NCBI GenBank assembly: GCA_031394045.1
Contig: JANMWN010000085.1
Coordinates: 1-57,006, forward strand
Direction of reading: 5' to 3'
Length of the DNA: 57,006 bases
DNA from: Sporichthyaceae bacterium
Lineage (GTDB): Bacteria > Actinomycetota > Actinomycetes > Prado026
Each line of letters opens with the position of its first letter. The stretch's first letter is position 1. Both the position numbers and the translations under genes were made by a program. This document shows positions 31,678-48,539 of this stretch, one piece after another. The notes under the pieces were generated by a model, which saw nothing but the letters and a program-made list of their open reading frames with translations, ran no database searches and was not told the origin of the DNA.

Positions 31678-32293
31678 TTGTTGGCGGCAAAATGTCAACA
31701 GCTGCTAACTTCGTGCGCGGGTCAACTTGTGAGAACCGGTAGATGATGGACACCTTGGTTCCGGTTCCTGGCTGACGGGTTGCGGACGCGGTTCCGGTAG
31801 CTGGGCGACAGTGGTTCGGTAGGTGCCTGACACTCACGCTCACTTCCTGCTGGCGAGCTCCGCTTCCACGAACACGTGCGCTCCAGCCATCGCATCATCG
31901 GTCTAGCAGAGGACGCGGCTGGTCCGATCTGGTCGCGTCTTGTAGGGGGCTGCCACCTCGATCGCGACACCGGCACGCGGATTCGCAGGGTGTTTGGTTC
32001 GTCGGTGTTGCCTGGCGTGCGACAGATATCAGTGCCTGGCCGATCGCCACGGCAGCGAGGCGCTGATCAACGCAGACCGCCACATCAGCGGCCGGGACAC
32101 GATTGATGCAGGTCACGTCCATTGGGCGGTGGTGACGGACCGGCGACTACGGCGTTCTCCTCGACCCCTCGAGCCTGTGACGTGGGGCCGACGAGCGCGC
32201 AGTTGCCGCCGGCCAACCTCCGTCTCATTGGTGTGGACGGACTAGCCCGTTCGGTCGCTTGGGCTTTCTTGATCGTGTCCCGATGCCCCAGGT

Positions 32294-33394
32294 ATGCGCT
32301 TGCGTGACACCCTCGTCGTCCTGCTGCTCGCTCCGGCCGTCGCGACCGCCGCGCTGATCGCCCCCGCCGGCGCCGCCCTACCTCCTCGGTCAGCCGCTCC
32401 GCCGACCCAGGCGATCGTCACTTCCGGGCACGCCAAGGGCTCCACGGCCGCATACACCCCGACGGCCGATGTCGGCTCCGGGCTGACCGGTTACGGCGGC
32501 GGGACGACCGGCGGTGACCTCGGCGACGTCTACTGGGTGACGACGCTCGCCGACACCGGTCCCGGCAGCCTGCGGTACGGCGCGACCCTGCCGCAGCCGT
32601 TGTGGATCCGGTTCGCGGTCTCGGGCACGATCGCCCTCAAGACCAAGCTGAACATCGCGTCGGACAAGACCGTCGACGGAAGGGGGGCATCGATCACGAT
32701 CACGAGCATGGTCGTGCGCATCAGCGGCGTGAGCAACGTGATCGTCGAGAACATCCGCTTCCTCAAGGCGCGGAGCGACCCGAACGCCAACGGCCTGCGG
32801 ATCATGGCCGGCTCGGACCACGTCTGGGTCGACCACTGCGACTTCTCGGTCGCGAGCGACGAGGTCATGAGCGTCACCCAGGGCTCCACGGACGTGACCT
32901 TGTCCTGGAACCGCTTCCACGACAACGACAAGGGCGTGCTCGTCAGCGCCCTCAACTCGGGCCTCCCCGAGCAGGTGACGATGCACCACAACTACTTCTA
33001 CAAGACCTACCAGCGGAACCCGTTGGTCAACCTCGCCGACGTCCACGCGTACAACAACCTCCTGACCACCTGGGGCGACATCGGCATGCAGACGACAGCT
33101 GGCGGCCGACTGGTGTCGCAGGGCAACGTCTTCGACGCCACCGGGGTCGGCAAGGACGGCATCCGGAACCAGCTCGGCAACTGGGGGGTCGGCGCTGCGT
33201 CCTCGGACGGTGACCTGTACCTCCACGGCGCGCGGTTCGTGCAGCAGGGGACGTCGGACACGTTCGCGCTGCCGTACTCGGTCGTCGTCGAGCCGGCGAC
33301 GGACGCCCTCGAGGCGCGGATCAAGGCTGGCGCCGGGCTGCAGGCACTGGCCCTCGCGGCGGTGACGAGGTCACCGACCCTCTCGCTGGGCTGA
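32294..33394 (+). CDS. secreted pectate lyase-like protein (PL1 family), copy 1
   Basis: Signal peptide. PL1 core blocks HVWVDHCDF, TLSWNRFHDNDKGVLVS, MHHNYF..YQRNPL and HAYNN. Confidence 0.8.
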   Translation: MRLRDTLVVLLLAPAVATAALIAPAGAALPPRSAAPPTQAIVTSGHAKGSTAAYTPTADVGSGLTGYGGGTTGGDLGDVYWVTTLADTGPGSLRYGATLPQPLWIRFAVSGTIALKTKLNIASDKTVDGRGASITITSMVVRISGVSNVIVENIRFLKARSDPNANGLRIMAGSDHVWVDHCDFSVASDEVMSVTQGSTDVTLSWNRFHDNDKGVLVSALNSGLPEQVTMHHNYFYKTYQRNPLVNLADVHAYNNLLTTWGDIGMQTTAGGRLVSQGNVFDATGVGKDGIRNQLGNWGVGAASSDGDLYLHGARFVQQGTSDTFALPYSVVVEPATDALEARIKAGAGLQALALAAVTRSPTLSLG

Positions 33395-33545
33395 TAGGGG
33401 ACGGGCACGTCACCCACATGTCGTAATTTGCCCGCTATCGGGCGCAATAGGGGTTGACGCCCCTTCTGTGCAAGGACAAGATCGCCGCTTCTGGCTGAGG
33501 ACATCGAGAGCCCGATGTCCCTCCCCCTCTCGGCTGGAGGCTTCG

Positions 33546-34403
33546 ATGCATGCTGCGACGGGTTCGAGCGCCTCGCCCTGGGCGAGTGATGCGCCCCGGC
33601 TGGACGCGATCCGGCGGCTGCCACGGCAGCTGACGGTGGGCCACCGGCCCCTGCCCGACTTCCTCGTCATCGGTGCCCAGCGCAGCGGGACCACGACGCT
33701 CTACGACCTCCTGGTACAGCACCCGCTGGTGCGCGCCGCACGTACGAAGGAGGTGCACTACTTCGACCTGCACCACGAGGACGGGCCGGACTGGTACCGG
33801 TCCAACTTCCCGTTCCACCGAGGTACGGGTCCGCGCCGGTGGCAGACCGGTGAGGCGTCGCCGTTCTACCTCTACCACCCGCTGGCCCCCGACAGGGCGG
33901 CCGCCGAGCTGCCCGAGGCGCGCCTCCTGGCGGTGCTCCGCAACCCCGTCGACCGCGCGTTCTCGCACTACCAGCACGAGCGGGCGAAGGGTCGCGAGCC
34001 GCTCTCGTTCGCAGAGGCGATCCGCCACGAGGATGCCCGCATCGCCTCGGGCTGGCGGCGGGCCAGCTCGGGCGCCCCGGCGACGGACCGTGCGCTGCGC
34101 TCGTACTCCTACCTGAGCCGCAGCGACTACGCGACGCAGGTCGCACGCTGGCTCGCCGCTTACCCCGCCGAGCAGCTGCTGGTCCTGCAGTCGGAGCAGA
34201 TGTTCGCTGACCCCGCAGCGGAGATGGCCAAGGTCTACGACTTCCTCGGGCTCCCGGCGTACCCCGAGCTCGCCTGCCGGCACCTGAACGAGCGCAGCTA
34301 CCCCCCGATGGACCCCGGGCTGCGTGCCGAGCTCAACGCCCGGTTCGCAGAGTCCAACCGGGCCCTGGCCGCCCTCATCGGCCGCGAGCTCGACTGGGCC
34401 TAG
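33546..34403 (+). CDS. sulfotransferase 1
   Basis: GGAGG RBS. 5'-PSB loop DFLVIGAQRSGTTTL and 3'-PB motif LRNPVDRAFSHY. Confidence 0.8.
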   Translation: MHAATGSSASPWASDAPRLDAIRRLPRQLTVGHRPLPDFLVIGAQRSGTTTLYDLLVQHPLVRAARTKEVHYFDLHHEDGPDWYRSNFPFHRGTGPRRWQTGEASPFYLYHPLAPDRAAAELPEARLLAVLRNPVDRAFSHYQHERAKGREPLSFAEAIRHEDARIASGWRRASSGAPATDRALRSYSYLSRSDYATQVARWLAAYPAEQLLVLQSEQMFADPAAEMAKVYDFLGLPAYPELACRHLNERSYPPMDPGLRAELNARFAESNRALAALIGRELDWA

Positions 34404-34464
34404 GTCGACAGCGGCAGCAGGCAGCGACAGTCCAACCCGGATACGGCGAGGAGGTGATCGGTTC

Positions 34465-35880
34465 GTGCAATCGCTCCGATCTGACCCGCAGTCGACATTG
34501 AACGTCACCTACGATCGACCGCTCCTCGTACGCCATGCGCGGATCCCGCTGCCGTCCGTGGCGGTGCTCATGCTGGTCGTCGACGTCTGCGCGTTCGCGG
34601 TCGCCGTACGCCTCAGCTACCGCCGCGACCTGCTGGCCTTCCCCTTCGGCGTCGTGACCTCTGGCGCCCTCACCCTCGCCCTGTTCCGCGCGTCCGGCCT
34701 GTACCGCCGCCGGTTGAACCTGTCGGTCCTCGACGACCTGCCCCGGCTCGTGACCCGCTCATTCACCGCAGCTGGCCTGGTCGCGCTCGGCGACGCGGCC
34801 ACCCGCAGGCACGCGTTGGGCTGGGCGCTGCTCGAGACGGCGGCCTCGTTCAGCGTCGTCGTGCTGGTCCTGCGTACAGCGGCGTACTCATGGGTCCGAC
34901 ACGTACGCCGGCGCCGGCTCATCGCGCATCGAACCCTGATCGTCGGCGCCGGCCTGGTGGGCAGCCGACTCGGGCGGGTACTCGTCGACCACCCGGAGTA
35001 CGGGCTGGAGCCGGTCGGGTTCTACGATCCCGACCCGCTGCTACAGGCGGGCCTGCCGGTCTCGGTGATCCGAGAGGGCACCCTCGGCGACGCGATCGTC
35101 GATACCGGTGCCGCCATCGTCGTCGTGGCGTTCTCCTCCGACAGCGAGTCCGAGATCGTCAACATCATCCGGTCCTGCGACCTCATGCGACGCGAGATCT
35201 TCGTGGTACCGCGGCTGTTCGAGATGCAGTCGATCAGCCGGGGCATGGACGCGGTGTGGGGGATCCCCCTCATCCGGCTCCCGCGGCCACCGCTGGTCGG
35301 ACGGAGCTTCGGCCGCAAGCGGTTGTTCGACCTCGCCGTCTCCAGCGTTGCTCTGCTGCTGCTGCTCCCGCTGCTCGCCGTCCTCGCGCTGCTCGTCCGC
35401 ATCGACGGTGGACCGGGCATCTTCTTCGAGCAGGAGCGCATCGGCTATGGCGGGCGCCGATTCCGGCTGTGGAAGTTCCGGACCGTACCCTCGTCGCTCG
35501 TTTCGGCCGCCACGCCCCGCTGGACCGTCGCCGCCGACCCGCAGCTCTCGCGGTTGGCCCGGTTCCTGCGGCGCACCTCGCTCGACGAGCTCCCGCAGCT
35601 GTGGAACGTGGCGCGCGGTGACATGAGCCTGGTGGGGCCGCGCCCCGAACGGCCGTTCTTCGTGGATGAGTTCCAGGGGAAGTTCCCGCGCTACCTGGAC
35701 CGGCATCGGGTGCGCGCGGGCCTGACCGGCCTGGCCCAGGTCAATGGGCTGCGGGGGGACACCTCGATCGAGGACCGGGCCCGGTTCGACAACGCCTACA
35801 TCGAGAGCTGGTCGATGTGGGGCGACGTCAAGATCCTGCTGCGTACTGTCGGCGCGGTCGTGGGGCGGTCCGGTGGCTGA
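34465..35880 (+). CDS. polyprenyl-phosphate glycosyl-1-phosphate transferase (priming sugar transferase, WbaP/EpsB-like)
   Basis: GGAGG RBS and GTG start. N-terminal TM helices and a C-terminal bacterial sugar transferase domain (KRLFDL, RFRLWKFRT, DELPQLWNVARGDMSLVGPRP). Confidence 0.85.
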   Translation: MQSLRSDPQSTLNVTYDRPLLVRHARIPLPSVAVLMLVVDVCAFAVAVRLSYRRDLLAFPFGVVTSGALTLALFRASGLYRRRLNLSVLDDLPRLVTRSFTAAGLVALGDAATRRHALGWALLETAASFSVVVLVLRTAAYSWVRHVRRRRLIAHRTLIVGAGLVGSRLGRVLVDHPEYGLEPVGFYDPDPLLQAGLPVSVIREGTLGDAIVDTGAAIVVVAFSSDSESEIVNIIRSCDLMRREIFVVPRLFEMQSISRGMDAVWGIPLIRLPRPPLVGRSFGRKRLFDLAVSSVALLLLLPLLAVLALLVRIDGGPGIFFEQERIGYGGRRFRLWKFRTVPSSLVSAATPRWTVAADPQLSRLARFLRRTSLDELPQLWNVARGDMSLVGPRPERPFFVDEFQGKFPRYLDRHRVRAGLTGLAQVNGLRGDTSIEDRARFDNAYIESWSMWGDVKILLRTVGAVVGRSGG

Positions 35881-36985
35881 CGACGTGCTGGAGCCCACGC
35901 GGACGGTGCTGCACGTCGCGTGCAACCTCGGGTCGGGCGTGGCAGCGGTCATCGCGTCGTACGCCGGCCTGACCCCCGAGTACCGGCACGTGCTGCTGGC
36001 CGACCTGGACCCCTCCTGCCCGATCGAGCACCTGACTTCGGCGATGGCCGAGGTGCTGCCGCTGGGATCCGGAGCGGTGGAGCGCGCCTGGCGGATCCGC
36101 TCCGAGGTGCGGCGGCTGGCCCCCGACGTCATCCACGCGCACTCGTCGTACGCAGGGGCGTTCGTACGCCTCGCGATCGCAGACCGCGACCGCATCGTGC
36201 ACACCCCGCACTGCTACGGCTTCACGCGCAGGGACCTCGGGTGGCCGGCCCGCTCAGTCGTGTGGCTGGCCGAGGCAGCGCTGAGCCTCCGGGGCCGCCA
36301 CGTCGCCGCCTGCAGCCCGCACGAGTACCGGTCGGCGCGACGCCTCCCCGGTCGGCGAACTGTCACGTACGTGCCCAACGCCGTTCCCGACCGCGCGCCG
36401 GTGCCCGTGGTGGGCCACAGCAGCCCGCTCGTCGTCAGCGTCGGGCGGTTGTGCCCGCAGAAGTCGCCAGAGCTGTTCGCCGCCGCCGCCGAGCTCTCGC
36501 GCCGCCGTGGCCTGGACCTGCGCTGGCGGTGGGTTGGCGGCGGTTCCCCGGAGTACGTCGACCGGCTGACCCGCGCTGGCGTCGAGGTGACCGGTTGGGT
36601 GCCACGCGAGCGGGCCTGGGCGCACATCGCGGGAGCGCAGGTGTACGTCCACACGGCCGCCTGGGAGAGCGCTCCGCTGACGATCCTTGAGGCGGCCGCC
36701 GCCGGCGTCCCCGTCCTCGCGCGCGACCACCCGGCGCTGCGCCTGCTCGGACTGCGGCCGTTGTGGACCGGCGTCGACGAGGTCGTCGACATTCTCGCGG
36801 GATTCCCGTCGGCGCAGGTGTTCGCCGTCGCCGTTGCGGCCGGGCGCGAGCTCGCCGCCGCCCACCAACCTGCCAACCAGCGGGCCGCGCTGCTCAGGGT
36901 GTACGCCGCCGTCGCTGCACGGGAGGGCACGCCAGCGGACCTGACGCCGCTCGGCGCAGGGACCCGAGCAAGGAGATCGACATGA
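35873..36985 (+). CDS. glycosyltransferase (GT-B, GT4-like)
   Basis: VGRLCPQKSPELF and the E-x7-E-like block WESAPLTILEAAAAGVPVL. Start is uncertain (GTG 35873 or 35885). Confidence 0.7.
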   Translation: MADDVLEPTRTVLHVACNLGSGVAAVIASYAGLTPEYRHVLLADLDPSCPIEHLTSAMAEVLPLGSGAVERAWRIRSEVRRLAPDVIHAHSSYAGAFVRLAIADRDRIVHTPHCYGFTRRDLGWPARSVVWLAEAALSLRGRHVAACSPHEYRSARRLPGRRTVTYVPNAVPDRAPVPVVGHSSPLVVSVGRLCPQKSPELFAAAAELSRRRGLDLRWRWVGGGSPEYVDRLTRAGVEVTGWVPRERAWAHIAGAQVYVHTAAWESAPLTILEAAAAGVPVLARDHPALRLLGLRPLWTGVDEVVDILAGFPSAQVFAVAVAAGRELAAAHQPANQRAALLRVYAAVAAREGTPADLTPLGAGTRARRST

Positions 36986-38691
36986 CCCCGTCCAACCGCT
37001 CGACCGAGTCGTACGAGCCGGAGGTCGGCCTGCTCGCAGCGCTGCGGCGCTACGCGGTGCTCGTCGTCGCGGTGGCCCTGGTCCTTGCTGCCGCTGCGTA
37101 CGCGCTGGCGTGGAGCCTGCCGAAGGAGTACACCGCCACAGCGACAGTCACCGTCGCCCGCCCGGACACCCAACCCGTCTACCGAACGGTCTCCGCGGGC
37201 GACGTGTCCAACCGTCAGCTCACGATCGTCCAGCAGCTGCACGACTCGCGTACGCTCACCCGCGCCGCGGTGGCGCTGGGGACGACACCGGGCAGCCTGG
37301 AGACTCGGCTGACCGTCCAGCCCGAGGCGCAGACCGCGCTCATCGACGTGAAGGCGACCGCGCCGACCGCCGCCGGGGCAGCGGACACGGCGAACGCCGT
37401 CGTCACTGCCTACCGGGCGATCTTCGCCGACGACCAACGACGGGTCACCGAGGCCGGCATAGCCCCGCTCCGGACCTCCGCCAACCAGCTCGCGGCGCAG
37501 ATCGGCAAGCTCAGGCTGCAGGTCCAGGCTCGTAGCGCGGCGCTGCGGCAGCAGGTGGTCCAGACATTCGCCGGTGCCTTCCCGCCCCCTGTCGCAGGGG
37601 CCGAGGATCGGGCGGTTCAGACGGCACTGCAGATCGACCCGACGTACACGGCGCTACGCGCGTCGCTGGTCAACCCCCAGATCCAGCTCGACGGTCTCAA
37701 CGAGAAGATGCGCGAGCTCAGCGTCGACGGCGGCCTGATGGGCGTCCCGTTCTCCCATGTCGACGACGCGATCCCGGCGAGCGCGCCGGACACCCTCGCA
37801 CCCACGCGTGGCGCCCTGCTCGGCGGCATCGTCGGGCTGCTCTTCGGGTGCGGGCTGGCGTGGCGCCGGGCCGAGCGAAACCGGCCGATGTCGGGGGCCC
37901 GTGTCGCGGCGATCCTCGGCGTGCCGGTGCTGCTCGACGTGGCGCTGCCGAAGCGATCGCTCGCCCAGCTGAGCCGGCTCAGCGACTTCGCCTCCACCGA
38001 GAAGCGGCTCGGGTCGGTCGCGGTCTCGCTGATGCGCTTTTGTGAGGTGCGCGGCCTCCGCCGGCTGGTGGTCGCCCCGGCCACCACCGAGAGGGCTGGT
38101 CCGGCCGTCGCCCTGGCGCTCGCGACGTCGATCCGCGGGTCGGGGCGCGATCTGCTCCTGGTGGACCTGGGGGACGACGGCGGCCACCTGACCAGCCTGT
38201 CCGGCCTGCGCGACGAGATCGGGCTGCGCGACGTGATCGCGGGCCGGGCCCTCCTGGTCGACTCCTGCGTCTCGCTCGGGGTCGGGCACACCTCCGTGGA
38301 GTTCATCGGCCTCGGCGCGGGGCCTGAGCAGTCGGCCGTCGCTGTCGCGGAGCACCTGGCTCTGCTTCCGCACGAGGCGCTGGCCGTCGTCGACGCGCCC
38401 GGTCTGGAGACGTCCGGACTGGCCATCGGTGCGGCAGCCGACGACAGCGCCCTCGTGCTGGTCACCTGCGACTCGACCGAGGCTGAGGCCCTCGCCGTCA
38501 CGGCCACCAAGCTCGAGCTTGCGGGAACGCTCGTGGTCGGGGTCGTGCACGTACGCACCACGCGAGGCTGGTGGCGGCCCCGTCGACGGTCGGGGGTGGA
38601 CCATGTCTCCGTCGTGCGGCAGTCCGTGCCTTCGTTGGCGACACCGCTGCACCCGGCCCGAGTGGTCGAGTCACGGCGGACCGCGCCGTGA
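36982..38691 (+). CDS. polysaccharide chain-length determinant (Wzz/PCP) with degenerate BY-kinase-like C-terminal domain
   Basis: TM1, a long coiled-coil periplasmic-type region and TM2 (GALLGGIVGLLFGCGLAW), then a P-loop NTPase-like fold. It lacks the GK[ST] Walker A (VVAPATTERAGPAVAL) and has no C-terminal Tyr cluster. Confidence 0.7.
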   Translation: MTPSNRSTESYEPEVGLLAALRRYAVLVVAVALVLAAAAYALAWSLPKEYTATATVTVARPDTQPVYRTVSAGDVSNRQLTIVQQLHDSRTLTRAAVALGTTPGSLETRLTVQPEAQTALIDVKATAPTAAGAADTANAVVTAYRAIFADDQRRVTEAGIAPLRTSANQLAAQIGKLRLQVQARSAALRQQVVQTFAGAFPPPVAGAEDRAVQTALQIDPTYTALRASLVNPQIQLDGLNEKMRELSVDGGLMGVPFSHVDDAIPASAPDTLAPTRGALLGGIVGLLFGCGLAWRRAERNRPMSGARVAAILGVPVLLDVALPKRSLAQLSRLSDFASTEKRLGSVAVSLMRFCEVRGLRRLVVAPATTERAGPAVALALATSIRGSGRDLLLVDLGDDGGHLTSLSGLRDEIGLRDVIAGRALLVDSCVSLGVGHTSVEFIGLGAGPEQSAVAVAEHLALLPHEALAVVDAPGLETSGLAIGAAADDSALVLVTCDSTEAEALAVTATKLELAGTLVVGVVHVRTTRGWWRPRRRSGVDHVSVVRQSVPSLATPLHPARVVESRRTAP

Positions 38692-39545
38692 CCGCCCGGC
38701 TGCCGGACTTCGTGTGCATCGGTGCACTGAAGGCGGGCACGACCTACCTCGAGGCGCTGCTGCGCGACCACCCGGGCCTGTGCCTGCCGTCGGCGGTCAA
38801 GGAGGTCGACTACTTCTCGCTCCACCACGAGCGCGGCGAGCAGTGGTACCGCGACAAGTTCGACGGGTGTGCCCAACGCAAGCACGGCGAGGTCTCGCCC
38901 CGCTACCTCGTCGACGCGGACAGCCCGGCGCGCATCGCGGCAGCCAACGCCGACGTACGCCTGCTCCTCCTGGTCAGGGACCCGGTCACGCGCGCGGTCT
39001 CCCAGTACAAGCACCGGGTCCGCACGACGTTCTACCGCGCGAGCTTCGAGGACTACCTCGCTGACAACCCTGGCGCCCTCGAACGCGGTCGCTATGGCCA
39101 CCACGCGGGCCGATACCTCGAGTGGTTCGACCGCGCCCAGCTGCACGTCGTGGTCTTCGAGGATCTCGTAGCCGACCCGGTCGTCGCCATGCGGTCGGTG
39201 TACGGGTTCCTGGGTGTCGATGCCGGCCATGCGCTGTCGCAGCACGACCGGCCGCACAACGAGGCATGGCAGCCGAGCCGGCGGCGCGCCTACGTGCTGG
39301 CCAAGCGGCTCAGCGGGCACGTGCACGACCTCGGCTACGGGTCTGTCGCGTTCCGCCTGGCCAGGTCGCCGCTGGCCGTCTGGGTCGCTGGACGGCACCA
39401 GCAGCTGGACGTCTCCGCGCCGAACGAGGCGACGGCCAGCAGGCTGCGTAAGCACTACGCGGCCGACGTCGACGCGCTGTCCGCGCTGGTCGGGCGCGAC
39501 CTCGCGGAGCTGTGGTGGGCCCGCCAGCCGGAGCCGGTCGCGTGA
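38688..39545 (+). CDS. sulfotransferase 2
   Basis: GTGA-coupled. DFVCIGALKAGTTYL (5'-PSB) and VRDPVTRAVSQY (3'-PB). Confidence 0.8.
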   Translation: MTARLPDFVCIGALKAGTTYLEALLRDHPGLCLPSAVKEVDYFSLHHERGEQWYRDKFDGCAQRKHGEVSPRYLVDADSPARIAAANADVRLLLLVRDPVTRAVSQYKHRVRTTFYRASFEDYLADNPGALERGRYGHHAGRYLEWFDRAQLHVVVFEDLVADPVVAMRSVYGFLGVDAGHALSQHDRPHNEAWQPSRRRAYVLAKRLSGHVHDLGYGSVAFRLARSPLAVWVAGRHQQLDVSAPNEATASRLRKHYAADVDALSALVGRDLAELWWARQPEPVA

Positions 39546-40648: not shown

Positions 40649-40695
40649 CCCGACTCCATCGACAACAGCTCGACCACCACACAAGGAGGATCGCG

Positions 40696-41649
40696 ATGCG
40701 AGCACTGGTGACCGGCGCAGCTGGATTCATCGGCAGCCACCTGGCCGAGCGGTTGGTCGCGGACGGTGCCGACGTGATCGGCATCGACTGCCTGACCGAC
40801 TACTACTCACCCGACCGAAAGCGGGCGAACCTGTCGGGCCTGGCCGGATCGGCAAGGTTCCGGCTGGTCGAGGAGGACATCCTCCGAGCGGACCTGCACG
40901 ACCTGGTCCGCGGCGTCGACGTGGTGTTCCACCAGGCCGGCCAGCCGGGTACGCGGCTGTCGTGGTCCGAGCACTTCCGGATGTACGTCGACCGCAACAT
41001 CCTCGCGACGCAGCGGTTGCTCGAGGCGTGCCGGGGCACGGACATCCAACGGCTCGTTAACGCGTCGAGCTCATCGGTGTACGGCAACAGTGACAGCTAC
41101 CCCTGCCGCGAGACGACGCTGCCCAGGCCGTTCAGCCCCTACGGCGTCACGAAGCTGGCGGCCGAGCAGCTGTGCGACCTGTACGCCGTCAACTGGGGTC
41201 TGCCGGTGGTATCGCTGCGCTACTTCACCGTCTACGGTCCGCGGCAGCGGCCGGACATGGGGATGAACATCTTCCTTGACGCCGCCCTGCGCGACGCCCC
41301 GATCCGGGTGTTCGGCACGGGGTCGCACATTCGCGACTTCACCTACGTCGCCGACGTCGTCGAGGCCAACTGCGCGGCGGCGGACGCCGACATCGCGACT
41401 CCGACGATGCTCAACGTCTCCGGCGGCAGCTCGGTCAGCGTCGCCGACCTGCTCGCCCTGATCGCCCGGCTCGTCGGCCACCGGCTGCGCGTCGAGCACC
41501 TGCCCGAGCAGCCCGGCGACGTACGGCGGACAGGCGGCTCGACCGAGCGCGCGCAGGCGCTGATCTCATGGAAACCGCAGACCAGCCTGGAGGAGGGCGT
41601 ACGCCAGCAGCTGGACTGGCAGAGCGCCGCCCTCGCGACGCAGGCATGA
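40696..41649 (+). CDS. NAD-dependent epimerase/dehydratase (SDR family)
   Basis: AAGGAGG RBS. GAAGFIGSHL Rossmann motif and catalytic Y-x3-K (PYGVTKLAAE). Confidence 0.85.
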   Translation: MRALVTGAAGFIGSHLAERLVADGADVIGIDCLTDYYSPDRKRANLSGLAGSARFRLVEEDILRADLHDLVRGVDVVFHQAGQPGTRLSWSEHFRMYVDRNILATQRLLEACRGTDIQRLVNASSSSVYGNSDSYPCRETTLPRPFSPYGVTKLAAEQLCDLYAVNWGLPVVSLRYFTVYGPRQRPDMGMNIFLDAALRDAPIRVFGTGSHIRDFTYVADVVEANCAAADADIATPTMLNVSGGSSVSVADLLALIARLVGHRLRVEHLPEQPGDVRRTGGSTERAQALISWKPQTSLEEGVRQQLDWQSAALATQA

Positions 41650-42836
41650 CCCTGCAGGAGTCGGACGCGAGGGTGTCCCGGTTCGCCAGCGCCTCCTCAT
41701 GGCGTGCGGTGCTGGTCATCAACTCGCTCGCCCGCGGCGGTGCCGAGACCCAGCTCGTCCGGCTGGCGGTGCACCTGGCGGCAACCGGCCATCACGTGAC
41801 TGTCGCGACGCTGATGCCGGACAACGACTTCGCGGCCGAGCTCGAGCCGGCTGGTGTCGAGGTGGTGTCGCTGACCGCAGGGCGCCGGCCGCGGGCGGTC
41901 CCGACTGTCGTGGGGCTGACCCGGCTGCTCCGGCGGGAGCGCGCGGACGTCGCGGTGAGCTTCCTCTACCAGGCCAACGTCGTGACCAGGGTCGCCGCGA
42001 AGTCAGCGGGTGTGCCCGTCGTCGTGTCGTCCATCCGCAACGAGTACTTCGGTGGGCACGGACGCGAGCTCGCCGTGCGCGGCACCGGCCGGCTCGCCTC
42101 TCTCACGACGACCAACTCCGTCCTGTCCGCGGACTCCCTCGTCCGCCGGGGGGTGGTGGCACGCGATCGCCTCATGGTGATCCCGAACGCCCTGCCCCCG
42201 GCGGCGTTCGACCCGGGCGGGGGAGGGGCAGCCGTACGGAGCGAGCTGGGTGTGGCCGCTGACGAATTCCTGTGGCTCGGCGTCGGCCGGCTCGCCGTGC
42301 AGAAGGCCTGGCCGGACCTGCTACGGGCGTTCGCGTCGGTCGAAGGGGGACGCGTACCCGGCCGGCTGGTCGTCGCCGGGGAGGGACCGGAGGCGGACGC
42401 GCTCGCCGCCACGGTCGACCGGCTCGACCTGTCCGGCCGGGTACGCCTTCTCGGGGTACGCCGAGACGTCGCCGACCTGATGGCGGCAGCCGATGCGCTC
42501 GTCCTGCCCAGCGCGTACGAGGGGCTGCCCAATGTCGTGCTCGAGGCCATGGCCGCTGGGCTGCCCGTCGTCGCGACAAGGGTGGGAGGGGTGCCCGAGC
42601 TCGTCGACGATTCGGTCGGGATCGTAGTCACCCCGGGGAGCCCGGCCGATCTGGCCGCCGCGATGCGACGCATGGCCAGCCTCGACGTCTCGACCCGCGC
42701 CCGGATGGGGCAGACAGCCAGGCTGCGGGCGCGCGACGGCTTCAGCCAGGACGTCGTGATGGCGTGCTGGCTGTCCGTGCTCGACGGACTCGTCGCCCGC
42801 AGCGGCACCGGCCGGCGTCCCCGGCGTTGCCGGTGA
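41646..42836 (+). CDS. glycosyltransferase family 4
   Basis: ATGA-coupled. ARGGAETQLVRLA and EGLPNVVLEAMAAGLPVVAT (E-x7-E). Confidence 0.85.
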   Translation: MTLQESDARVSRFASASSWRAVLVINSLARGGAETQLVRLAVHLAATGHHVTVATLMPDNDFAAELEPAGVEVVSLTAGRRPRAVPTVVGLTRLLRRERADVAVSFLYQANVVTRVAAKSAGVPVVVSSIRNEYFGGHGRELAVRGTGRLASLTTTNSVLSADSLVRRGVVARDRLMVIPNALPPAAFDPGGGGAAVRSELGVAADEFLWLGVGRLAVQKAWPDLLRAFASVEGGRVPGRLVVAGEGPEADALAATVDRLDLSGRVRLLGVRRDVADLMAAADALVLPSAYEGLPNVVLEAMAAGLPVVATRVGGVPELVDDSVGIVVTPGSPADLAAAMRRMASLDVSTRARMGQTARLRARDGFSQDVVMACWLSVLDGLVARSGTGRRPRRCR

Positions 42837-44386
42837 GGCCGGCCGAGGCACCGTCCGACAGAGCCGCACTGCGCCGCCGCTCGGTGGCCGGCATCGGCTG
42901 GATGGGACTGTCCGCCGCCACGCAGGCCGTGCTCCAGGTCGCCGTGCTGGCTGCCCTCGCCCGGCTGGTCGCTCCAGCCCAGTTTGGGCTGGTGTCCGGC
43001 GCGCTCATCGTGGTGGCGGTCACGACGATCGTGGCGCAGTGCGGGCTGGGCAGCGCGATCGTGCAGCGACCGGTGCTCACCGAGCTGCACGTGCGCGTCG
43101 CCTTCACCGCCGGGCTCGTGCTCGCCGTCGCCTGCTCCGGGGCACTCCAGCTGCTCGCACCGCTGGTGGAGCACGCGTTCGGGCTACCCGGCCTCGCCCC
43201 CATCCTGCGGGTGCTCGCGCTCGGGCTGGTGATCAACGCGATGACCCTGGGCGACTACCTGCTCGCGCGCCGGGTCCAGTTCAGCCGCCTGGCTGCCGCC
43301 GAGACGGCGTCGTACGCCATCGGCTACGGCGCAGTGGCCGTCCTGATGGCGTGGCTGGGTCTGGGGCCGTGGGCCATCGTCATCGGCCAGCTCGCGCAGG
43401 CGACGATCCGCACGGCCAGCGTGATGGCGCTGGCCCCGCACAGCGTCCGGCCCTCGCTGGCCCGCGGCCCGCTGCGCGAGCTCCTGGGCTACGGCGTCGG
43501 CCACCTGCTCGCCCAGCTGGCCAACAGCGTCGCGATCCTCGGCGACAACATCGTCGTCGGCCGATTCCTCGGCGCGGCAGCCCTGGGCCTGTACGGGCGG
43601 GCCTACCAGCTCGTCGCAGCGCCGGCCTCACTCTTCGGCCAGGTGGCGAACGAGGTGCTGTTCCCCGCCATGGCCTCGGTACAGGAGGACAAGGCAGCGC
43701 TGCGTCGGGTCTACGCCACCGGTGCGGCGCTGCTGGCATTCGTGGCGCTGCCCATCTCGTCCATGTGCGCCGTCACGTCCGAGCAGCTCGTCCTCGTTCT
43801 CCTCGGCCGGGACTGGCTTCCGCTGCGGGACGCGTTCGACGTGATCCTGTTCGGGATGCTGTTCCGTACCGGCTACAAGCTGAGCGACTCGCTCGCTCGG
43901 GCGACCGGCGCTGTCTACCGCCGTGCGTGGCGGCAAGGCCTGTATGCAGCGTGCGTCGTCGGTGGAGCCCTGCTGGGGCGGCACTGGGGGATCCGTGGCG
44001 TTGCGGTCGGCGTCCTGCTCGCCCTGCTGGAGAACTACCTGCTGATGGCGCAGCTGAGCCTGTCGCTCATCGGCATGTCATGGTCGCGCTTCCTGGCGCA
44101 GCACATTCCGGGGGTCGTGGTCTCGGTCGTGGCGGCGGTGGCCGCGCTGGGGACGCGTACGGTCGCCGAGTCTTTCCAGGCACCGGTCCTGGTCGTGCTG
44201 GCCTCGGCCTGGCTGGGCGGCGCCGCAGCCGTCCTGCTGCTGTTGCGACTCGCGCCGGGTGTCCCGGTCCTGCGGAGCGTGAGCCGGCTGGTCGCCGACA
44301 CCTGCCTGCTGCTGCCACCACGGCTCGGGTCGGTGGTCGGCCGGATCGCAGGCTTGCGCGGCCAGGCAGCGTCGGTGGATCGATGA
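42833..44386 (+). CDS. Wzx-like polysaccharide flippase (MOP superfamily)
   Basis: GTGA-coupled. About 12-14 TM helices. The upstream part of the 704-aa track ORF overlaps the GT gene out of frame and is not counted. Confidence 0.7.
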   Translation: MRPAEAPSDRAALRRRSVAGIGWMGLSAATQAVLQVAVLAALARLVAPAQFGLVSGALIVVAVTTIVAQCGLGSAIVQRPVLTELHVRVAFTAGLVLAVACSGALQLLAPLVEHAFGLPGLAPILRVLALGLVINAMTLGDYLLARRVQFSRLAAAETASYAIGYGAVAVLMAWLGLGPWAIVIGQLAQATIRTASVMALAPHSVRPSLARGPLRELLGYGVGHLLAQLANSVAILGDNIVVGRFLGAAALGLYGRAYQLVAAPASLFGQVANEVLFPAMASVQEDKAALRRVYATGAALLAFVALPISSMCAVTSEQLVLVLLGRDWLPLRDAFDVILFGMLFRTGYKLSDSLARATGAVYRRAWRQGLYAACVVGGALLGRHWGIRGVAVGVLLALLENYLLMAQLSLSLIGMSWSRFLAQHIPGVVVSVVAAVAALGTRTVAESFQAPVLVVLASAWLGGAAAVLLLLRLAPGVPVLRSVSRLVADTCLLLPPRLGSVVGRIAGLRGQAASVDR

Positions 44387-45537
44387 ACGCGTCGGCGAGC
44401 GGCCCGCGCGTCACGGTGCTCCTGCCCAATCTCGCCGGTGGCGGTGCGGAGCGGGTGATGCTGACCGTCGCCGGGGGTTTGGCGGACGCGGGTGCCGACG
44501 TACGCCTGCTGCTCGGTGACACGTCGGGCCCGCTGGCCGAGCAGGTCCCCGGCAACATCGCGGTCGAGAGCATGGGCCGGGTGCACCTGCGCGATGCCGT
44601 CCCAGCGGTGGCCAGGCATCTGCGCCGGGAGCGCCCGCACTGCCTGCTCAGCACCCTCGAGCACGCCAATGTCGTGGCCCTCGCTGCGAACGCGATGAAC
44701 GGGTCCAGGACCGCCGTCGCCGTACGCGTGGCGAACACCCTCGGCGAGATGGCCGCGGCGAACCCGTCGGCCAAGGATCGGCTGGCCCTGGTCGCAGCGC
44801 GACGCCTCTACCCCCGGGCCGCGGCCGTCATCGCCCCGTCCCGCGGGGTCGCCGACGACCTCAGGGCCGTGGTCGGCAGTCGCGTCGAGCACCTGATGAG
44901 GGTGATCCCTAACCCGGTGATCGGGTCCGACCTGCCGGCGCGGGCGGCGGCTCCGGTCGAGCACCCGTGGTTCGCCGTTGGCCAGCCGCCGGTCCTGCTC
45001 ACGGTCGGCAGCTTGACAGCCAAGAAGAACCACGCGCTGCTGCTGCGGGCCGCAGCAGCGCTCGTGCCGGCGATCCGGGTGCGCACGCTCATCCTCGGCG
45101 AGGGCCCCGAGCGTCCGCGCCTGACGACGCTGGCCGGAGAGCTCGGGCTCCGGATCGACGAGGACGTGAGCATGCCGGGCTGGGTCGACGACCCGTACCC
45201 GTACCTTTCGAGGTGCTCGGTCTATGTCCTCGCCTCGGACCGCGAGGGTCTGCCCGGTGCATTGATCCAGGCGCTGGCGTGCGGGGCCGCGGTGGTCTCG
45301 ACCGACTGCCGCAGCGGTCCCAGCGAGGTGCTGGACGCCGGGCGGCTGGGCCGGCTCGTCCCGGTCGGCGACGTGGCGGCGATGACCGCGGCGATCCGCG
45401 CGACGCTGGCCGAGCGTACGACGGGCGTGCCGTCGGCTGACTCCTCGTCCGTGCTGGCGGCGTACACCGTCGCGGGCGCCGTCGCCGCGTACGTCAGCCT
45501 CGTCGACGAGCTGACCACTGCGGGGGTGGCCGTATGA
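44383..45537 (+). CDS. glycosyltransferase family 4
   Basis: ATGA-coupled. LPNLAGGGAERV and REGLPGALIQALACGAAVVST. Confidence 0.85.
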   Translation: MNASASGPRVTVLLPNLAGGGAERVMLTVAGGLADAGADVRLLLGDTSGPLAEQVPGNIAVESMGRVHLRDAVPAVARHLRRERPHCLLSTLEHANVVALAANAMNGSRTAVAVRVANTLGEMAAANPSAKDRLALVAARRLYPRAAAVIAPSRGVADDLRAVVGSRVEHLMRVIPNPVIGSDLPARAAAPVEHPWFAVGQPPVLLTVGSLTAKKNHALLLRAAAALVPAIRVRTLILGEGPERPRLTTLAGELGLRIDEDVSMPGWVDDPYPYLSRCSVYVLASDREGLPGALIQALACGAAVVSTDCRSGPSEVLDAGRLGRLVPVGDVAAMTAAIRATLAERTTGVPSADSSSVLAAYTVAGAVAAYVSLVDELTTAGVAV

Positions 45538-46481
45538 CCGCGGCCGGCCGGCTCGTCGGCCGCCCGATCCTGGTCGGCGGCTGCTCCCGGAGCGGGACCA
45601 CGCTTCTCGGGGCCATGCTCGGCTGGGGGGAGGGCCGGCTGACGGTCCCCGAGGCGAACTTCAAGTGGGAGCTGTACGCCTCGGGTGCGGTGGACCAGGA
45701 CATGGTCGACCTGTCGCGGGCCCGCGAGTTGCTCGCGGGCGACCCGAAGTTCGCACTCTGGGGGATCGCTCCCGTGACCGGCCGCGGCCGCATGCCGTTC
45801 GGTGAGCTGATGAGCTTGCTGGTCGAGCGGCACGCCGCGGCACTCGGGGCATCCGCGCACGTGGCCTGGATCGACCACACGCCGGGCAACATCCGCTTCG
45901 TGCCCACCTGGCGCCGGGTGCTGCCGGAGGCACGGTTCGTCCACATGATCCGGGACGGCCGCGCCGTGGCGGCCTCGGTCCTGCCGCTGGACTGGGGGCC
46001 GAACACCGCGACCGAGGCCGCCAGGCACTGGGCGCTCCAGGTGGCGGCTGGTCTGGCTGCCGCCGGGGCGCTCGGCCCCGACCTCGTCCACACCGTCCGC
46101 TACGAGGACCTGATCCTCAAGCCCGAACGTACGCTCAAGCTGGTCTGCGACTTCGCCGGGATCGAGTACGACGACCAGATGGTCGACCAGCGCGACTACG
46201 CCCTTCCCGCGTACACCGCAGGGCAGCATGGCCTGGTGCTGAGCCGGCCCGACCCGGGGCGCGTGGAGGCCTGGCGGGACGTGCTCCGGCCGGCACAGGT
46301 CCGTGCCTTCGAGCGGCTCACCGGTGAGCTGCTCGACCTGCTGGGCTATCGGAGCGACTACGGCATCAGCGCTGCCCGGCAGGGTCCGGTCGAGCACTAC
46401 CGCGAGCTCGCCGACAGCGCCCTGCGGCGCGTGGTCCTCGACCGGCTGAGGCGGAGTGCGCGCTGGAGGCGGGGCAGGTGA
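45534..46481 (+). CDS. sulfotransferase 3 (Sulfotransfer_3-like)
   Basis: ATGA-coupled. VGGCSRSGTTLLG (PSB loop) and HMIRDGRAVAAS. This is a different subfamily from sulfotransferases 1 and 2. Confidence 0.75.
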   Translation: MTAAGRLVGRPILVGGCSRSGTTLLGAMLGWGEGRLTVPEANFKWELYASGAVDQDMVDLSRARELLAGDPKFALWGIAPVTGRGRMPFGELMSLLVERHAAALGASAHVAWIDHTPGNIRFVPTWRRVLPEARFVHMIRDGRAVAASVLPLDWGPNTATEAARHWALQVAAGLAAAGALGPDLVHTVRYEDLILKPERTLKLVCDFAGIEYDDQMVDQRDYALPAYTAGQHGLVLSRPDPGRVEAWRDVLRPAQVRAFERLTGELLDLLGYRSDYGISAARQGPVEHYRELADSALRRVVLDRLRRSARWRRGR

Positions 46482-47722
46482 CGCTGACCTGGCCAGTGGC
46501 GGGGGACCGGCGGTCGCCGGTGACTCGAGGCGTGCGTTCGGCCGGGCCGGCGGACCGGCTCGATCTCGTCGCCTACCTCGGCGTGTGTGCGTTGTACGCC
46601 ACGATCCCTTGGCAGGACGTCGTGCAGGTCTCGGGCATCGGCACGGTCGCCAAGGCGGTCGGCCTGCTGGTCATCGTGGTCTGCGGCCTTGCGCTCGGGG
46701 TCGGCGGCGGCTTCCGCCGACCTGGCGAGACGCTCGTGCTGATGCTGCTCTTCACCGGGTGGCTGGTGCTCTCGCCGCTCTGGAGCGCGTACCCGCAGGA
46801 GTCCTTCGCGCGCGGGGGCACGATGCTGCAGCTGGCAGTGATGGTGCTGCTCACCGTCCTGGCCGTCACCACGCCGCAACGGCTGAACGGACTCCTTGCG
46901 GCGTTCGTGGTAGGAGATCTCCTGCTTGGGATCAGCGCGCTGCAGCAGCGGGCTGGGGGCCCCACCCTGGTGCGTTACACGGCTGAGGGCACGAACCCGA
47001 ACGACGTCGCCTTCCTGATGTGCCTGGGGATCCCGATGGCGTGGTACCTCGCGGTGTCGCTCCGGAAGCCGGTGTGGCGCGCAGCGGCTGCCTGCTTCCC
47101 GCTGCTGGCCGTCTTCGTCGTCCTGCTCACGGCGTCGCGCTCGGCGCTGCTCCTGCTGCTGCCGGCGTTCGCCATCGTGCCGCTGACCATCCGGCTGCTC
47201 TCGCCGACGGCACGGACCCTGCTGGCGACACTGGTCCTCGTCGTCATGGCCGGGGTCGTCAGCGGGGGCCTGCTGCTGCCGTCCGCACCGTTGCAACGGC
47301 TGGGCACGACCTGGAGCGAGCTGCAGAGCGGCACGCTCGACAACCGCACGGTCCTGTGGGGGATCGGGCTGGACGTCTTCGAGCATCATCAGGTCATCGG
47401 GGTGGGCGCCGGTGTCGTCCCGGAGTACGTCGGGCAGAGCTATCCCCTTCAGGCCGGGGTCCACAACACCTACCTGTCGGTCGCGGTCCAGCTCGGGACG
47501 GTCGGCATCCTTCTGTTCGGCCTGCTGCTCATGTCGGCCGTACGCCACGCGGCCCTTGTCGCCGGGAGGGCCGAGCGGGCGATGGCCGTCGTGCTGGGCG
47601 TGGTCCTTGTCCTCGGGCTGCTGCCCCGGCACTGGGAGTTCTCGAAGGGGCTGTGGGCCGTCTTGGCCATCCTGGTCTGTATCGCAGCAACGGGTCGGGA
47701 ACCGAGGAGCCGTGATGGCTGA
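46478..47722 (+). CDS. O-antigen ligase/polymerase family membrane protein (Wzy-like)
   Basis: GTGA-coupled. 10 or more TM helices with a larger loop containing LQSGTLDNRTVLWG..GVGAG, typical of the Wzy_C family. Confidence 0.7.
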   Translation: MTLTWPVAGDRRSPVTRGVRSAGPADRLDLVAYLGVCALYATIPWQDVVQVSGIGTVAKAVGLLVIVVCGLALGVGGGFRRPGETLVLMLLFTGWLVLSPLWSAYPQESFARGGTMLQLAVMVLLTVLAVTTPQRLNGLLAAFVVGDLLLGISALQQRAGGPTLVRYTAEGTNPNDVAFLMCLGIPMAWYLAVSLRKPVWRAAAACFPLLAVFVVLLTASRSALLLLLPAFAIVPLTIRLLSPTARTLLATLVLVVMAGVVSGGLLLPSAPLQRLGTTWSELQSGTLDNRTVLWGIGLDVFEHHQVIGVGAGVVPEYVGQSYPLQAGVHNTYLSVAVQLGTVGILLFGLLLMSAVRHAALVAGRAERAMAVVLGVVLVLGLLPRHWEFSKGLWAVLAILVCIAATGREPRSRDG

Positions 47723-48539
47723 GCGCCCGCTGCCCTCGTTCACCGAGGCGACCGGGAACGTCAAGCTGCGTCCCCTCGAGGACGGGGTACGGGAGCCGGC
47801 GGCCACGACCCAGCGGTTCGTCGCCAGGGCGGCCGCAGCAGCCGGCCGGCCGGCCGGGCTGGTTCGGGTGCTCGACGTCGGCTGCGGCCGGGGTGACGCG
47901 GTGGCCTGGCTGTGCGACCGCGGCTACGACGCCCATGGGGTGGAGATCCGCAGCGACTATCTGGAGCGGGGGCGCGGCTTCCTCGAGCGGGAGGGGCACG
48001 GCGCGGACCGGCTGGCCGAGATCGTCGGTGGCAGCTACCCGTACGCTGACGGCACGTTCGACGTGGTGCTGTCGGACCAGGTGCTTGAGCACGTCGCGGA
48101 CCTGGCCGGGTTCGCCGCCGAGGTGGCGCGGGTTAGCGCCCCGGGCGCTGTCGGGCTGCACGTGTTCCCGGCGCGCTGGCGCCCGGTCGAGGTGCACATG
48201 AAGACCCCGCTGGTGCACTGGCTGCCCAAAGGGCGGGCCCGCCGTGCGGCGCTGCGGACGGTCCTGGGCGCCGGCCTCGGCGCGCCGTACTTCCCCGGGC
48301 TCGGGCTCGGTGACCGGGTCGAGGTCTTCGCGCGCTACAGCGACGCCGAGACGTTCTATCGCCCGCTCGCCCGCATCCAGGAGGTGTTCCGCGAGCACGG
48401 TCTCGACTCGGACGTCGCCGGCCCTTCCCGCGAGCGCGTCGCGGCTCGACTCCCCTCGATCCCCGTGCCGCTGAGACCCGCTGCGGGCCTGGTCTATCGG
48501 ACGGTGTTCTCGGTCTGCCTGGAGACCCTCCGCCGCTGA
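47715..48539 (+). CDS. class I SAM-dependent methyltransferase
   Basis: Overlaps the Wzy stop. VLDVGCGRGDA (motif I) and FDVVLSDQVLEHV. Confidence 0.8.
   Translation: MAERPLPSFTEATGNVKLRPLEDGVREPAATTQRFVARAAAAAGRPAGLVRVLDVGCGRGDAVAWLCDRGYDAHGVEIRSDYLERGRGFLEREGHGADRLAEIVGGSYPYADGTFDVVLSDQVLEHVADLAGFAAEVARVSAPGAVGLHVFPARWRPVEVHMKTPLVHWLPKGRARRAALRTVLGAGLGAPYFPGLGLGDRVEVFARYSDAETFYRPLARIQEVFREHGLDSDVAGPSRERVAARLPSIPVPLRPAAGLVYRTVFSVCLETLRR

Follow-up and report, generated by a model that had tools for sequence, protein, structure and literature searches.

Few bacterial gene clusters have been demonstrated to make sulfated polysaccharides, among them that for synechan in a cyanobacterium and a handful for marine capsules. 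The synechan cluster xss, carried on the megaplasmid pSYSM of Synechocystis PCC 6803, encodes Wzx, Wzy and a polysaccharide co-polymerase (PCP) together with two sulfotransferases of distinct subfamilies, and its sulfated exopolysaccharide (EPS) has been demonstrated; its authors described such clusters as unknown outside cyanobacteria (PMC8205485). Sulfated capsule loci of marine Vibrio and Cobetia have been described since. The only actinomycete case is wps-1 (WpsA-K) of Actinoplanes missouriensis, which is required for sporangium formation and encodes, besides Wzx, Wzy and Wzz, a pair of sulfotransferases from different families along with a methyltransferase, a GH26 protein and a kinase-like protein; the evidence for it is genetic, its sulfated polysaccharide having been predicted and not chemically verified (2026, PMC13390465). 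Here we analysed contig JANMWN010000085.1, which belongs to an NCBI assembly and was analysed over its entire 57,006 bp (hereafter the window), and found at positions 32294-48539 a cluster of 14 intact genes, all on the + strand and numbered G1-G14. Judging from the sequence, we consider the cluster, with a probability of about 0.65, to be an operon for a Wzx/Wzy-dependent acidic, sulfated and O-methylated heteropolysaccharide of an uncultured, high-GC, probably actinobacterial organism, which forms the sole cargo of an att-flanked, possibly mobilisable segment. Its genes are the following.

32294..33394, + strand: G1, predicted exported beta-helix protein of polysaccharide lyase family 1 (PL1, the pectate-lyase family); Pectate_lyase_4, 79.8 bits
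33546..34403, + strand: G2, sulfotransferase 1, resembling heparan sulfate (HS) N-sulfotransferases (NST) and 3-O-sulfotransferases (3-OST), predicted cytoplasmic; Sulfotransfer_1, 80.4 bits
34465..35880, + strand: G3, polyprenyl-phosphate hexose-1-phosphate transferase (PHPT), the initiating enzyme; Bac_transf, 205 bits
35873..36985, + strand: G4, glycosyltransferase of family 4 (GT4); Glyco_trans_1_4, Glycos_transf_1 and Glyco_transf_4; 8-nt overlap with G3
36982..38691, + strand: G5, Wzz/PCP co-polymerase with a degenerate C-terminal domain like that of bacterial tyrosine (BY) kinases; Wzz, 31.6 bits against 25.5
38688..39545, + strand: G6, sulfotransferase 2, HS 3-OST-like, predicted cytoplasmic; Sulfotransfer_1, 64.4 bits
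39542..40648, + strand: G7, VexL-like PL1 lyase, predicted to be exported or anchored; Pectate_lyase_4, 92.4 bits
40696..41649, + strand: G8, nucleotide-sugar epimerase of the short-chain dehydrogenase/reductase (SDR) type, most likely a UDP-glucuronate 4-epimerase; Epimerase, 184.7 bits
41646..42836, + strand: G9, GT4 glycosyltransferase; Glyco_trans_1_4, 121 bits
42833..44386, + strand: G10, Wzx flippase of the MOP family; Polysacc_synt_3, 237 bits (cut-off 23); about 11 transmembrane (TM)-like segments
44383..45537, + strand: G11, GT4 glycosyltransferase; Glyco_trans_1_4, 105.9 bits
45534..46481, + strand: G12, sulfotransferase 3, Sulfotransfer_3/TPST-like fold, predicted cytoplasmic; Sulfotransfer_3, 97.9 bits
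[quoted passage not shown]
47715..48539, + strand: G14, S-adenosylmethionine (SAM)-dependent methyltransferase, presumed sugar O-methyltransferase; Methyltransf_11, 58 bits; no TM segment

The gene models were established by frame analysis of the GC content at third codon positions (GC3) and by inspection of start codons, and the same coordinates were called independently in other samples, on contigs with 99.7-100% identity; G2 starts at the ATG at 33546, and its exact 285-residue product was also called on other contigs. Domains were assigned using the curated cut-offs of Pfam, the cut-offs of NCBIfam, sequence matches in the Protein Data Bank (PDB) and prediction of TM segments. G3 to G14 are separated by 11 junctions: eight overlaps of 4 nt with ATGA or GTGA (G5/G6 and G6/G7, both GTGA, being two of them), two overlaps of 8 nt and, at G7/G8, a gap of 47 nt preceded by AAGGAGG. 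With overlaps at ten of these junctions, the genes appear to form a single translationally coupled operon with sulfotransferases and a lyase inside it. An earlier note on this DNA had counted fifteen genes, one more than the models give, and had correctly described them as co-directional and as joined by ATGA/GTGA overlaps almost throughout from 34465. All of the enzymes that it named (a priming transferase, three GT4s, an SDR protein, Wzx, Wzy, Wzz and a methyltransferase) were matched by Pfam, whereas the two PL1 genes (32294-33394 and 39542-40648) were missing from its list. GC content in the window runs from 65 to 73%.

The presence of three sulfotransferases, as proposed in the same note, was borne out, all three products passing the Pfam curated cut-offs (80.4, 64.4 and 97.9 bits). 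The sequences quoted there as loops binding 3'-phosphoadenosine-5'-phosphosulfate (PAPS) were all located in the translations, GAQRSGTT and RNPVDRAFSHY in G2, GALKAGTT and RDPVTRAVSQY in G6 and CSRSGTT in G12, and the division into two subfamilies was also seen, with G2 and G6 of the HS type (Sulfotransfer_1) and G12 belonging to Sulfotransfer_3. Support from hidden Markov models, which had been named beforehand as a test, was obtained for the Bac_transf, Wzy_C and Wzx models as well as for the sulfotransferases, all above their cut-offs. The best PDB match of G2 was the N-sulfotransferase domain of NDST1 (E 5e-28), with HS 3-OSTs also matching, and those of G6 included 3RNL (E 6.5e-23) and HS 3-OST-3A (E 2e-20). 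In the alignment of G2 with NDST1, the 5'-phosphosulfate-binding (5'-PSB) loop is aligned, as are 'KEVHYF' with 'EEIQFF' and the 3'-phosphate-binding (3'-PB) motif 'RNPVDRAFSHYQH'; the alignments of both G2 and G6 take in the loop for the 5'-phosphosulfate, the strand 'KEVxYF' with its Glu and the motif for the 3'-phosphate. The two proteins are 37% identical to each other, and both also match Sulfotransfer_3. The animal HS sulfotransferases (NDST and HS 3-OST) share with them the 5'-PSB loop, the 'xEVxYF' Glu strand and the 3'-PB motif 'RxPxxRxxSxY', but their identity to G2 and G6 is low, and the loop Lys of NDST and 3-OST is Arg in G2. By sequence, the closest solved relatives of G2 and G6 are carbohydrate sulfotransferases. 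N-sulfation by G2, which its best match to NDST1 would suggest, was judged unlikely because no N-acetylglucosamine N-deacetylase is present, and O-sulfation would for the same reason be the likelier reaction.

For G12, the segments GCSRSGTT, E40, DH(T)P and RDGRAVAAS were invariant or nearly so among 33 homologues. Its AlphaFold (AF2) model (pLDDT 94, pTM 0.91) gave TPST2 and TPST1 as the top Foldseek matches (E about 1e-11, TM-score 0.6-0.69), followed by the sulfotransferase domains of OLS and CurM and then by the mycobacterial Stf9 and Stf1. TM segments were absent from G2, G6 and G12; because of this, and because PAPS is found in the cytoplasm, sulfation would be expected to take place there, on the lipid-linked repeat unit.

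The two lyases and the epimerase-like SDR protein say most about the chemistry of the polymer. The earlier reading of the locus, which stands with respect to Wzx/Wzy and the sulfotransferases, had missed both the VexL-like lyases and the likeness of the SDR protein to UDP-glucuronate 4-epimerases. VexL is a periplasmic lyase specific for the Vi antigen, poly-alpha-1,4-N-acetylgalactosaminuronic acid, with its gene inside the viaB biosynthesis locus, and K195, R232 and R235 are its essential residues (PMC6003464). The best PDB match of G7 was VexL (6FI2, E 4e-43), ahead of the plant PL1 protein Jun a 1 (4e-30) and of catabolic bacterial pectate lyases (1e-23 or weaker). G7 contains the motifs WIDH, SDGLVD, HDK and QRNPLVR, with equivalents of K195 and R232 of VexL, and a hydrophobic segment at residues 14-32. 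We take SDGLVD to be the canonical PL1 Ca2+ site and the Arg at +5 in QRNPLVR to represent the arginine pair of PelC. Judged by these motifs, the PL1 catalytic set is complete in G7, whereas its paralogue G1 has diverged; the two are 44% identical, and in their pairwise alignment G1 keeps the Lys ('NDK') and the catalytic Arg of 'QRNP'. Its own hydrophobic N-terminal segment spans residues 7-25. At E<=1e-30 the G7 family had 292 representatives out of 1.84 billion, and a word-based homologue search with G7 returned 26 matches. A role of the PL1 genes as catabolic pectinases was rejected on the grounds of translational coupling, conserved synteny and VexL as the nearest relative.

G8, a protein without TM segments, matched 6ZL6/6ZLA best in the PDB (E 1e-75), then MoeE5 (6KV9, E 3e-66), both ahead of GalE-, WbgU- and TviC-type enzymes. 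We take 6ZL6/6ZLA to be the UDP-glucuronate 4-epimerase of B. cereus; members of the 90% cluster of G8 carry the JGI label 'UDP-glucuronate 4-epimerase'. With regard to assembly, G3 also passed the NCBIfam model TIGR03025 EPS_sugtrans (364 bits against a cut-off of 295.55) and has four TM-like segments. G5 has TM segments at residues 25-43 and 304-322, the two-TM topology of PCP proteins, and its C-terminus weakly matches the kinase domains of BceF (E 0.005) and Etk (E 0.11) and has no Walker-A GK[ST]. G9 showed similarity to TuaC and TviE in NCBIfam, below threshold.

From these components we propose a pathway in which the substrates, the order of the steps, the sulfation of the polymer and the part played by the lyases are all predicted. 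G3 would transfer a hexose 1-phosphate to polyprenyl phosphate, and G4, G9 and G11 would extend it to a repeat unit of approximately four sugars, a size suggested by the presence of one PHPT and three GT4s. Galacturonic acid supplied through the UDP-glucuronate 4-epimerase-like G8 may be one of these sugars. At the cytoplasmic face, G2, G6 and G12 would sulfate the unit using PAPS produced elsewhere in the genome and G14 would methylate it, after which G10 would flip the unit and G13 would polymerise it, with G5, a PCP carrying a dead kinase domain, determining chain length. Outside the membrane, the exported G7 and G1 may shorten the uronic-acid polymer or set it free through beta-elimination, in parallel with VexL in Vi-antigen loci. 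The product best predicted from the genes is thus a Wzy-made polymer whose repeat unit contains galacturonic acid and bears up to three sulfates and a methyl group, and which is trimmed extracellularly by its own lyases.

The cluster is conserved. On a contig from another metagenome (L005/L088, hereafter L088), gene content and gene order are the same, with 74% nucleotide identity over a stretch that starts inside G1 and stops inside G13 at the end of that contig. Amino-acid identity was 59-79%, and each of the 13 genes that could be compared, the three sulfotransferases and the two lyases among them, had a dN/dS (NG86) of 0.21-0.39 (0.22 for G1 and 0.23 for G2). The synteny check proposed for the locus thus found gene order conserved, and the candidate sulfated polysaccharide of the earlier note is upheld by HMM cut-offs, catalytic motifs, the fold of G12, synteny and purifying selection. 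Rearranged clusters were seen on two further contigs. One, from a metagenome-assembled genome labelled 'Actinomycetes bacterium' at NCBI (L007, 2486-12349), has Wzx, PL1, a PAP2 phosphatase, four sulfotransferases, GT4 and Wzy in a chromosomal CysS/MetH context; the other (L089, 157-17002) carries four sulfotransferases, two PL1s and three GT4s beside Wzx and Wzy. PL1 genes recur in all three related clusters, and Wzy clusters rich in sulfotransferases seem to be a trait that recurs in the lineage. L089 also encodes a 997-residue protein containing Wzx. None of the 14 cluster genes in the window is a regulator by Pfam scan. Upstream of the orthologous cluster, L088 encodes at 2747-5137 a Ser/Thr protein kinase together with an FHA-GerE regulator, which may be the regulators missing from the att-flanked copy.

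Both sulfotransferase families are large and come mostly from uncultured bacteria. The G12-type relatives among the matches listed were 27-47% identical and came from many phyla. A crude tblastn survey covered the 10-kb flanks of G12-type sulfotransferases in 80 listed genomes from many phyla: 29 had a GT4 and 18 an HS-like sulfotransferase, while Wzx was found in 10, PHPT in 8 and PL1 in none. Such related sulfotransferases beside glycosyltransferases in many phyla suggest that sulfated glycans are under-recognised in bacteria. The locus had been called unusual; given the analogous wps-1 (PMC13390465) and the HS-like and GT4 counts of this survey, its rarity was overstated.

The cluster lies between repeats derived from a tRNA gene. 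ARAGORN found no tRNA in the window, and Rfam gave two borderline tRNA matches with good 3' halves (anticodon CAT, T arm and acceptor 3' strand) and degenerate 5' halves. By self-BLAST and alignment, four direct repeats consisting of the 3' half of tRNA-Met(CAT) and a downstream hairpin were found at 10690-10774, 31585-31726, 48879-49018 and 55406-55515. The second and third copies, 86.6% identical over 142 nt by self-BLAST, enclose a 17.3-kb segment (31633-48962) whose sole content is the 14-gene cluster. The earlier description of the island as tRNA-bounded is therefore right in that the repeats bracket the cluster, and wrong with respect to intact tRNA genes, the boundaries being att-like tRNA-Met 3' halves. 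Because no intact tRNA-Met gene lies in the window, the target gene would be expected beyond its left end. The features around the cluster are given below.

30294..31592, - strand: tyrosine integrase of the neighbouring segment B, adjoining att-like copy 2 on the left; Phage_integrase, 79.5 bits, with SAM-like N-terminal domains
31585..31726, + strand: att-like copy 2, left boundary; tRNA-Met(CAT) 3' half (core to 31632), hairpin and conserved arm; Rfam tRNA, 30.7 bits (gathering threshold 29)
31727..32293, + strand: leader upstream of G1, non-coding, presumed promoter region; GC of 31633-32293 is 62.5% against 71.6% in the cluster
48598..48878, + strand: right-arm remnant, 3' end of an AbiEii/WYL gene and spacer; 83% identical to 55121-55405
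48879..49018, + strand: att-like copy 3, right boundary; tRNA-Met 3' half with a 1-nt deletion, hairpin and arm; Rfam tRNA, 18.3 bits, below threshold

No sigma-70-type consensus was found in the leader upstream of G1, and consensus scans for promoters and terminators at both ends of the cluster gave no match. Contigs of two other samples begin exactly at 31607, inside the core of copy 2, where short-read contigs would break because of the multi-copy repeat. On the right, 48598-48987 is 83% identical over 396 nt to 55121-55515 by self-BLAST, a match covering the AbiEii/WYL gene's 3' end and the att sequence; the copy downstream of the cluster is a remnant lacking the toxin gene, which suggests that the right end of the segment has undergone deletion or recombination. 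A second tyrosine integrase (9399-10715, - strand), 94% identical to that at 30294-31592, adjoins att-like copy 1 on the left. With four repeats and two adjoining integrases, the window appears to be a tandem array of integrated segments, and the integrase at 30294-31592 is a possible trans-acting recombinase for the cluster segment. The 5' ends of both integrase genes (9399-10715 and 30294-31610, both on the - strand) overlap a degenerate tRNA-like 5' half, which is apparently element-derived (an attP arm). Typing of the element through plasmid-borne integrases was dropped because the similarity was too weak (31%). No housekeeping gene was found in the 57,006-bp window; Actinomycetota as the host is suggested indirectly by the high GC content together with many GTG starts, by the 'Actinomycetes bacterium' label of the related L007 and by the plasmid matches of the ISL3 transposase given below.

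Several observations tell against the reading of the cluster as an operon for a sulfated, methylated uronic-acid polymer on a mobilisable segment, and on the side of the chemistry they are as follows. Sulfate, galacturonic acid and the methyl group in the product are predictions from gene content. PAPS-synthesis genes (cysDNC) were not found among the 14 cluster genes, as the earlier note had said of the cluster, or among the other Pfam-scanned open reading frames (ORFs) of the window, not every ORF outside the cluster having been scanned; a UDP-glucose dehydrogenase gene is also absent from the 14, and the supply of both would depend on the unseen remainder of the genome. G8 passed no NCBIfam equivalog cut-off, and its assignment as a UDP-glucuronate 4-epimerase is for this reason probable and not proven. 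In G1, SDEVMS and QRNPLVN stand in place of the SDGLVD and QRNPLVR of G7, and two residues retained by G7 are absent. Two more distant PL1 homologues that were checked (41-44% identity) lie outside polysaccharide clusters; a general link of the PL1 clade to biosynthesis was rejected on this account, the link being found in close relatives. Finally, none of the nearest folds of G12 belongs to a carbohydrate sulfotransferase, those found (TPST1/2 and the CurM and OLS domains) being protein-tyrosine and polyketide sulfotransferases. At least one sulfotransferase, G12 especially, might on this basis act on protein tyrosine in the manner of RaxST/TPST, on a glycolipid or on a small molecule, leaving the polymer less sulfated or unsulfated; according to the synechan report, characterised bacterial sulfotransferases act mostly on Nod factors and mycobacterial glycolipids (PMC8205485). 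We regard such an activity as improbable, as G12 is joined by 4-nt overlaps to the GT4 gene G11 (ATGA) and to the Wzy gene G13 (GTGA) in a position kept in the orthologous cluster, genes of its type have a GT4 or an HS-like sulfotransferase nearby in the proportions given above, and G2 and G6 are nearest to carbohydrate sulfotransferases. The Wzy_C domain of G13 likewise counts against the polymer, since it also covers ligases and O-oligosaccharyltransferases, being common to WaaL and PglL-type enzymes, and G13 could be such an enzyme in a locus that puts a short sulfated glycan on proteins or another acceptor. The best NCBIfam model for G13 was indeed 'putative O-glycosylation ligase', and 'O-glycosylation flippase' was among the matches of G10, but the scores (57 bits against a cut-off of 188 and 103 bits against 720) are all far under the cut-offs, a Wzz/PCP chain-length protein is translationally coupled within the operon, and two lyases imply a polymeric uronic-acid substrate, all of which makes this alternative very unlikely indeed. 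An alternative with the same chemistry is that the polymer is a cell-wall-linked anionic glycopolymer resembling teichuronic acid, or a capsule, instead of a released EPS. Wzy-made polymers of monoderms are commonly ligated to peptidoglycan, G8 implies a uronic-acid pathway, and Wzx matched TuaB (150.8 bits) and a GT4 matched TuaC (79 bits), two proteins of teichuronic acid synthesis, both below threshold. These scores are, however, all far under the cut-offs, no LytR-CpsA-Psr (LCP) ligase gene is among the 14 genes, and two exported lyases fit release or trimming of a polymer; we therefore consider a wall polymer or capsule unlikely, and prefer the operon for a sulfated heteropolysaccharide as set out above.

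The mobility of the segment is a separate matter. No integrase lies between att-like copies 2 and 3, and because of this the segment can be called similar to a cis-mobilisable element (CIME-like) and not an autonomous island; CIMEs occur in tandem with integrative and conjugative elements, as in Streptococcus thermophilus. In the fullest form of this idea, the segment would be a cargo-only, cis-mobilisable 17.3-kb module, excised and moved between tRNA-Met sites by the integrase of its neighbour, that in a single step gives a soil actinobacterium the ability to form a coat of sulfated, methylated galacturonan type ('GAG-mimetic') together with its lyases, which we hold to be doubtful. The missing integrase counts against such a module, as do two further results: the orthologous cluster in L088 lies beside unrelated upstream genes (CHAP, FHA-GerE and Ser/Thr kinase) and has no att sequence, and no excised form, junction of copies 2 and 3 or empty site was seen. 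The missing integrase and the context in L088 also favour the alternative of resident chromosomal DNA in which the att repeats would be old scars, with islands inserted successively in an upstream tRNA-Met gene, as do the 1-nt deletion in the core of copy 3 and the GC content in L088, where the cluster (72.2%) is near its upstream flank (70.0%). Against scars, the att copies bracket the cluster exactly with nothing else inside, its right arm is 83% identical to that of the next segment, an integrase with matching att lies directly to the left, and the GC content of the cluster (71.6%) is above that of every other part of the contig (62.5-68.3%). We give the scars about an even chance, and they and the CIME-like segment carry about equal weight.

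The neighbouring segments hold several genes of other kinds. To the left, 23096-29899 encodes a DsrE-like protein, an ArsR-rhodanese fusion, a metallo-beta-lactamase-rhodanese protein (persulfide-dioxygenase-like) and a major facilitator superfamily (MFS) transporter; this sulfur-handling set adjoins the sulfotransferase cluster with no evident link and has no PAPS-synthesis genes. To the right, at 50412-55211, an ISL3 transposase gene and an ORF for ResIII/DEAD helicase domains overlap each other, perhaps because of an insertion, and an AbiEi/AbiEii-WYL type IV toxin-antitoxin pair follows, which is typical island cargo. The best plasmid matches of the transposase were all from Actinomycetota (Frondihabitans, Rhodococcus, Streptomyces and Kitasatospora, 55-62%). 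Further left, a 267-residue ORF (5508-6311, - strand) encodes part of a P-type ATPase (E1-E2 ATPase at positions 73-181 and the start of the hydrolase domain) and is probably a gene fragment, consistent with decay of the neighbouring segment. The cluster is intact, as the earlier note had claimed; the decay that it ascribed to the neighbours was spot-checked at this fragment and at the helicase ORF overlapping the ISL3 gene.

As a compact and intact operon of 17 kb with three sulfotransferases, a likely supply of UDP-galacturonic acid and two dedicated lyases, the locus is a tractable candidate for heterologous expression of putative sulfated, pectate- or Vi-like polymers of uncultured soil actinobacteria, and a candidate source of new bacterial carbohydrate sulfotransferases. 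Its att-flanked arrangement is a possible route for the horizontal spread of sulfated glycans; if the segment is mobilisable, it would represent a horizontally transferable sulfated-glycan trait outside cyanobacteria.

Compared with characterised loci, the cluster is of the same kind as xss and wps-1. Like G1-G14, xss joins Wzx/Wzy/PCP with sulfotransferases from distinct subfamilies, and the replicon that carries it is potentially mobile, but it has two sulfotransferases, eight glycosyltransferases, the XssS/R/Q regulators and an outer-membrane OPX protein, whereas the window cluster has three sulfotransferases and no regulator; the lyases and the epimerase of the latter do not appear in the xss gene list of the available text (PMC8205485). 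Because an XssS/R/Q-type regulatory module is absent from the 14 genes, we consider the cluster to be the same kind of system and not an xss orthologue. The likeness to wps-1, judged from gene descriptions, includes a high-GC actinomycete-type origin, Wzx, Wzy, a Wzz with an extended C-terminal domain, two sulfotransferase families including the heparan-sulfate type, a SAM methyltransferase, a glycan-cleaving enzyme and a predicted sulfated EPS. wps-1 differs in having two sulfotransferases, GT2 and GT26 glycosyltransferases, a GH26 hydrolase, a kinase-like protein and DUF4262; in the window cluster, by contrast, sulfotransferases number three and are accompanied by a PHPT and three GT4s, a UDP-glucuronate-4-epimerase-like SDR protein, two PL1 lyases and flanking att repeats.

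For the lyase, VexL of the viaB locus of Burkholderiales (6FI2) has, like G7, a PL1 beta-helix, an export signal, a gene within the locus and the catalytic Arg and Lys; it is metal-independent (SDRLLN) with its second Arg at +3, whereas G7 has SDGLVD and an Arg at +5, and it serves an ABC-transporter pathway in a diderm periplasm, whereas G7 belongs to a Wzy pathway, probably in a monoderm, and is accompanied by its paralogue G1 (PMC6003464). The cluster segment in turn resembles CIMEs in being att-flanked, without an integrase and in tandem with integrase-bearing elements of the same att, although its excision, transfer or accretion, and any conjugation by its neighbours, would be hypothetical. 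Taken together, these findings extend a known concept and change none; the locus is a useful but not an unprecedented lead to sulfated sugars outside cyanobacteria, and its more original aspects in relation to the known systems are the VexL-like lyase pair and the att-flanked module.

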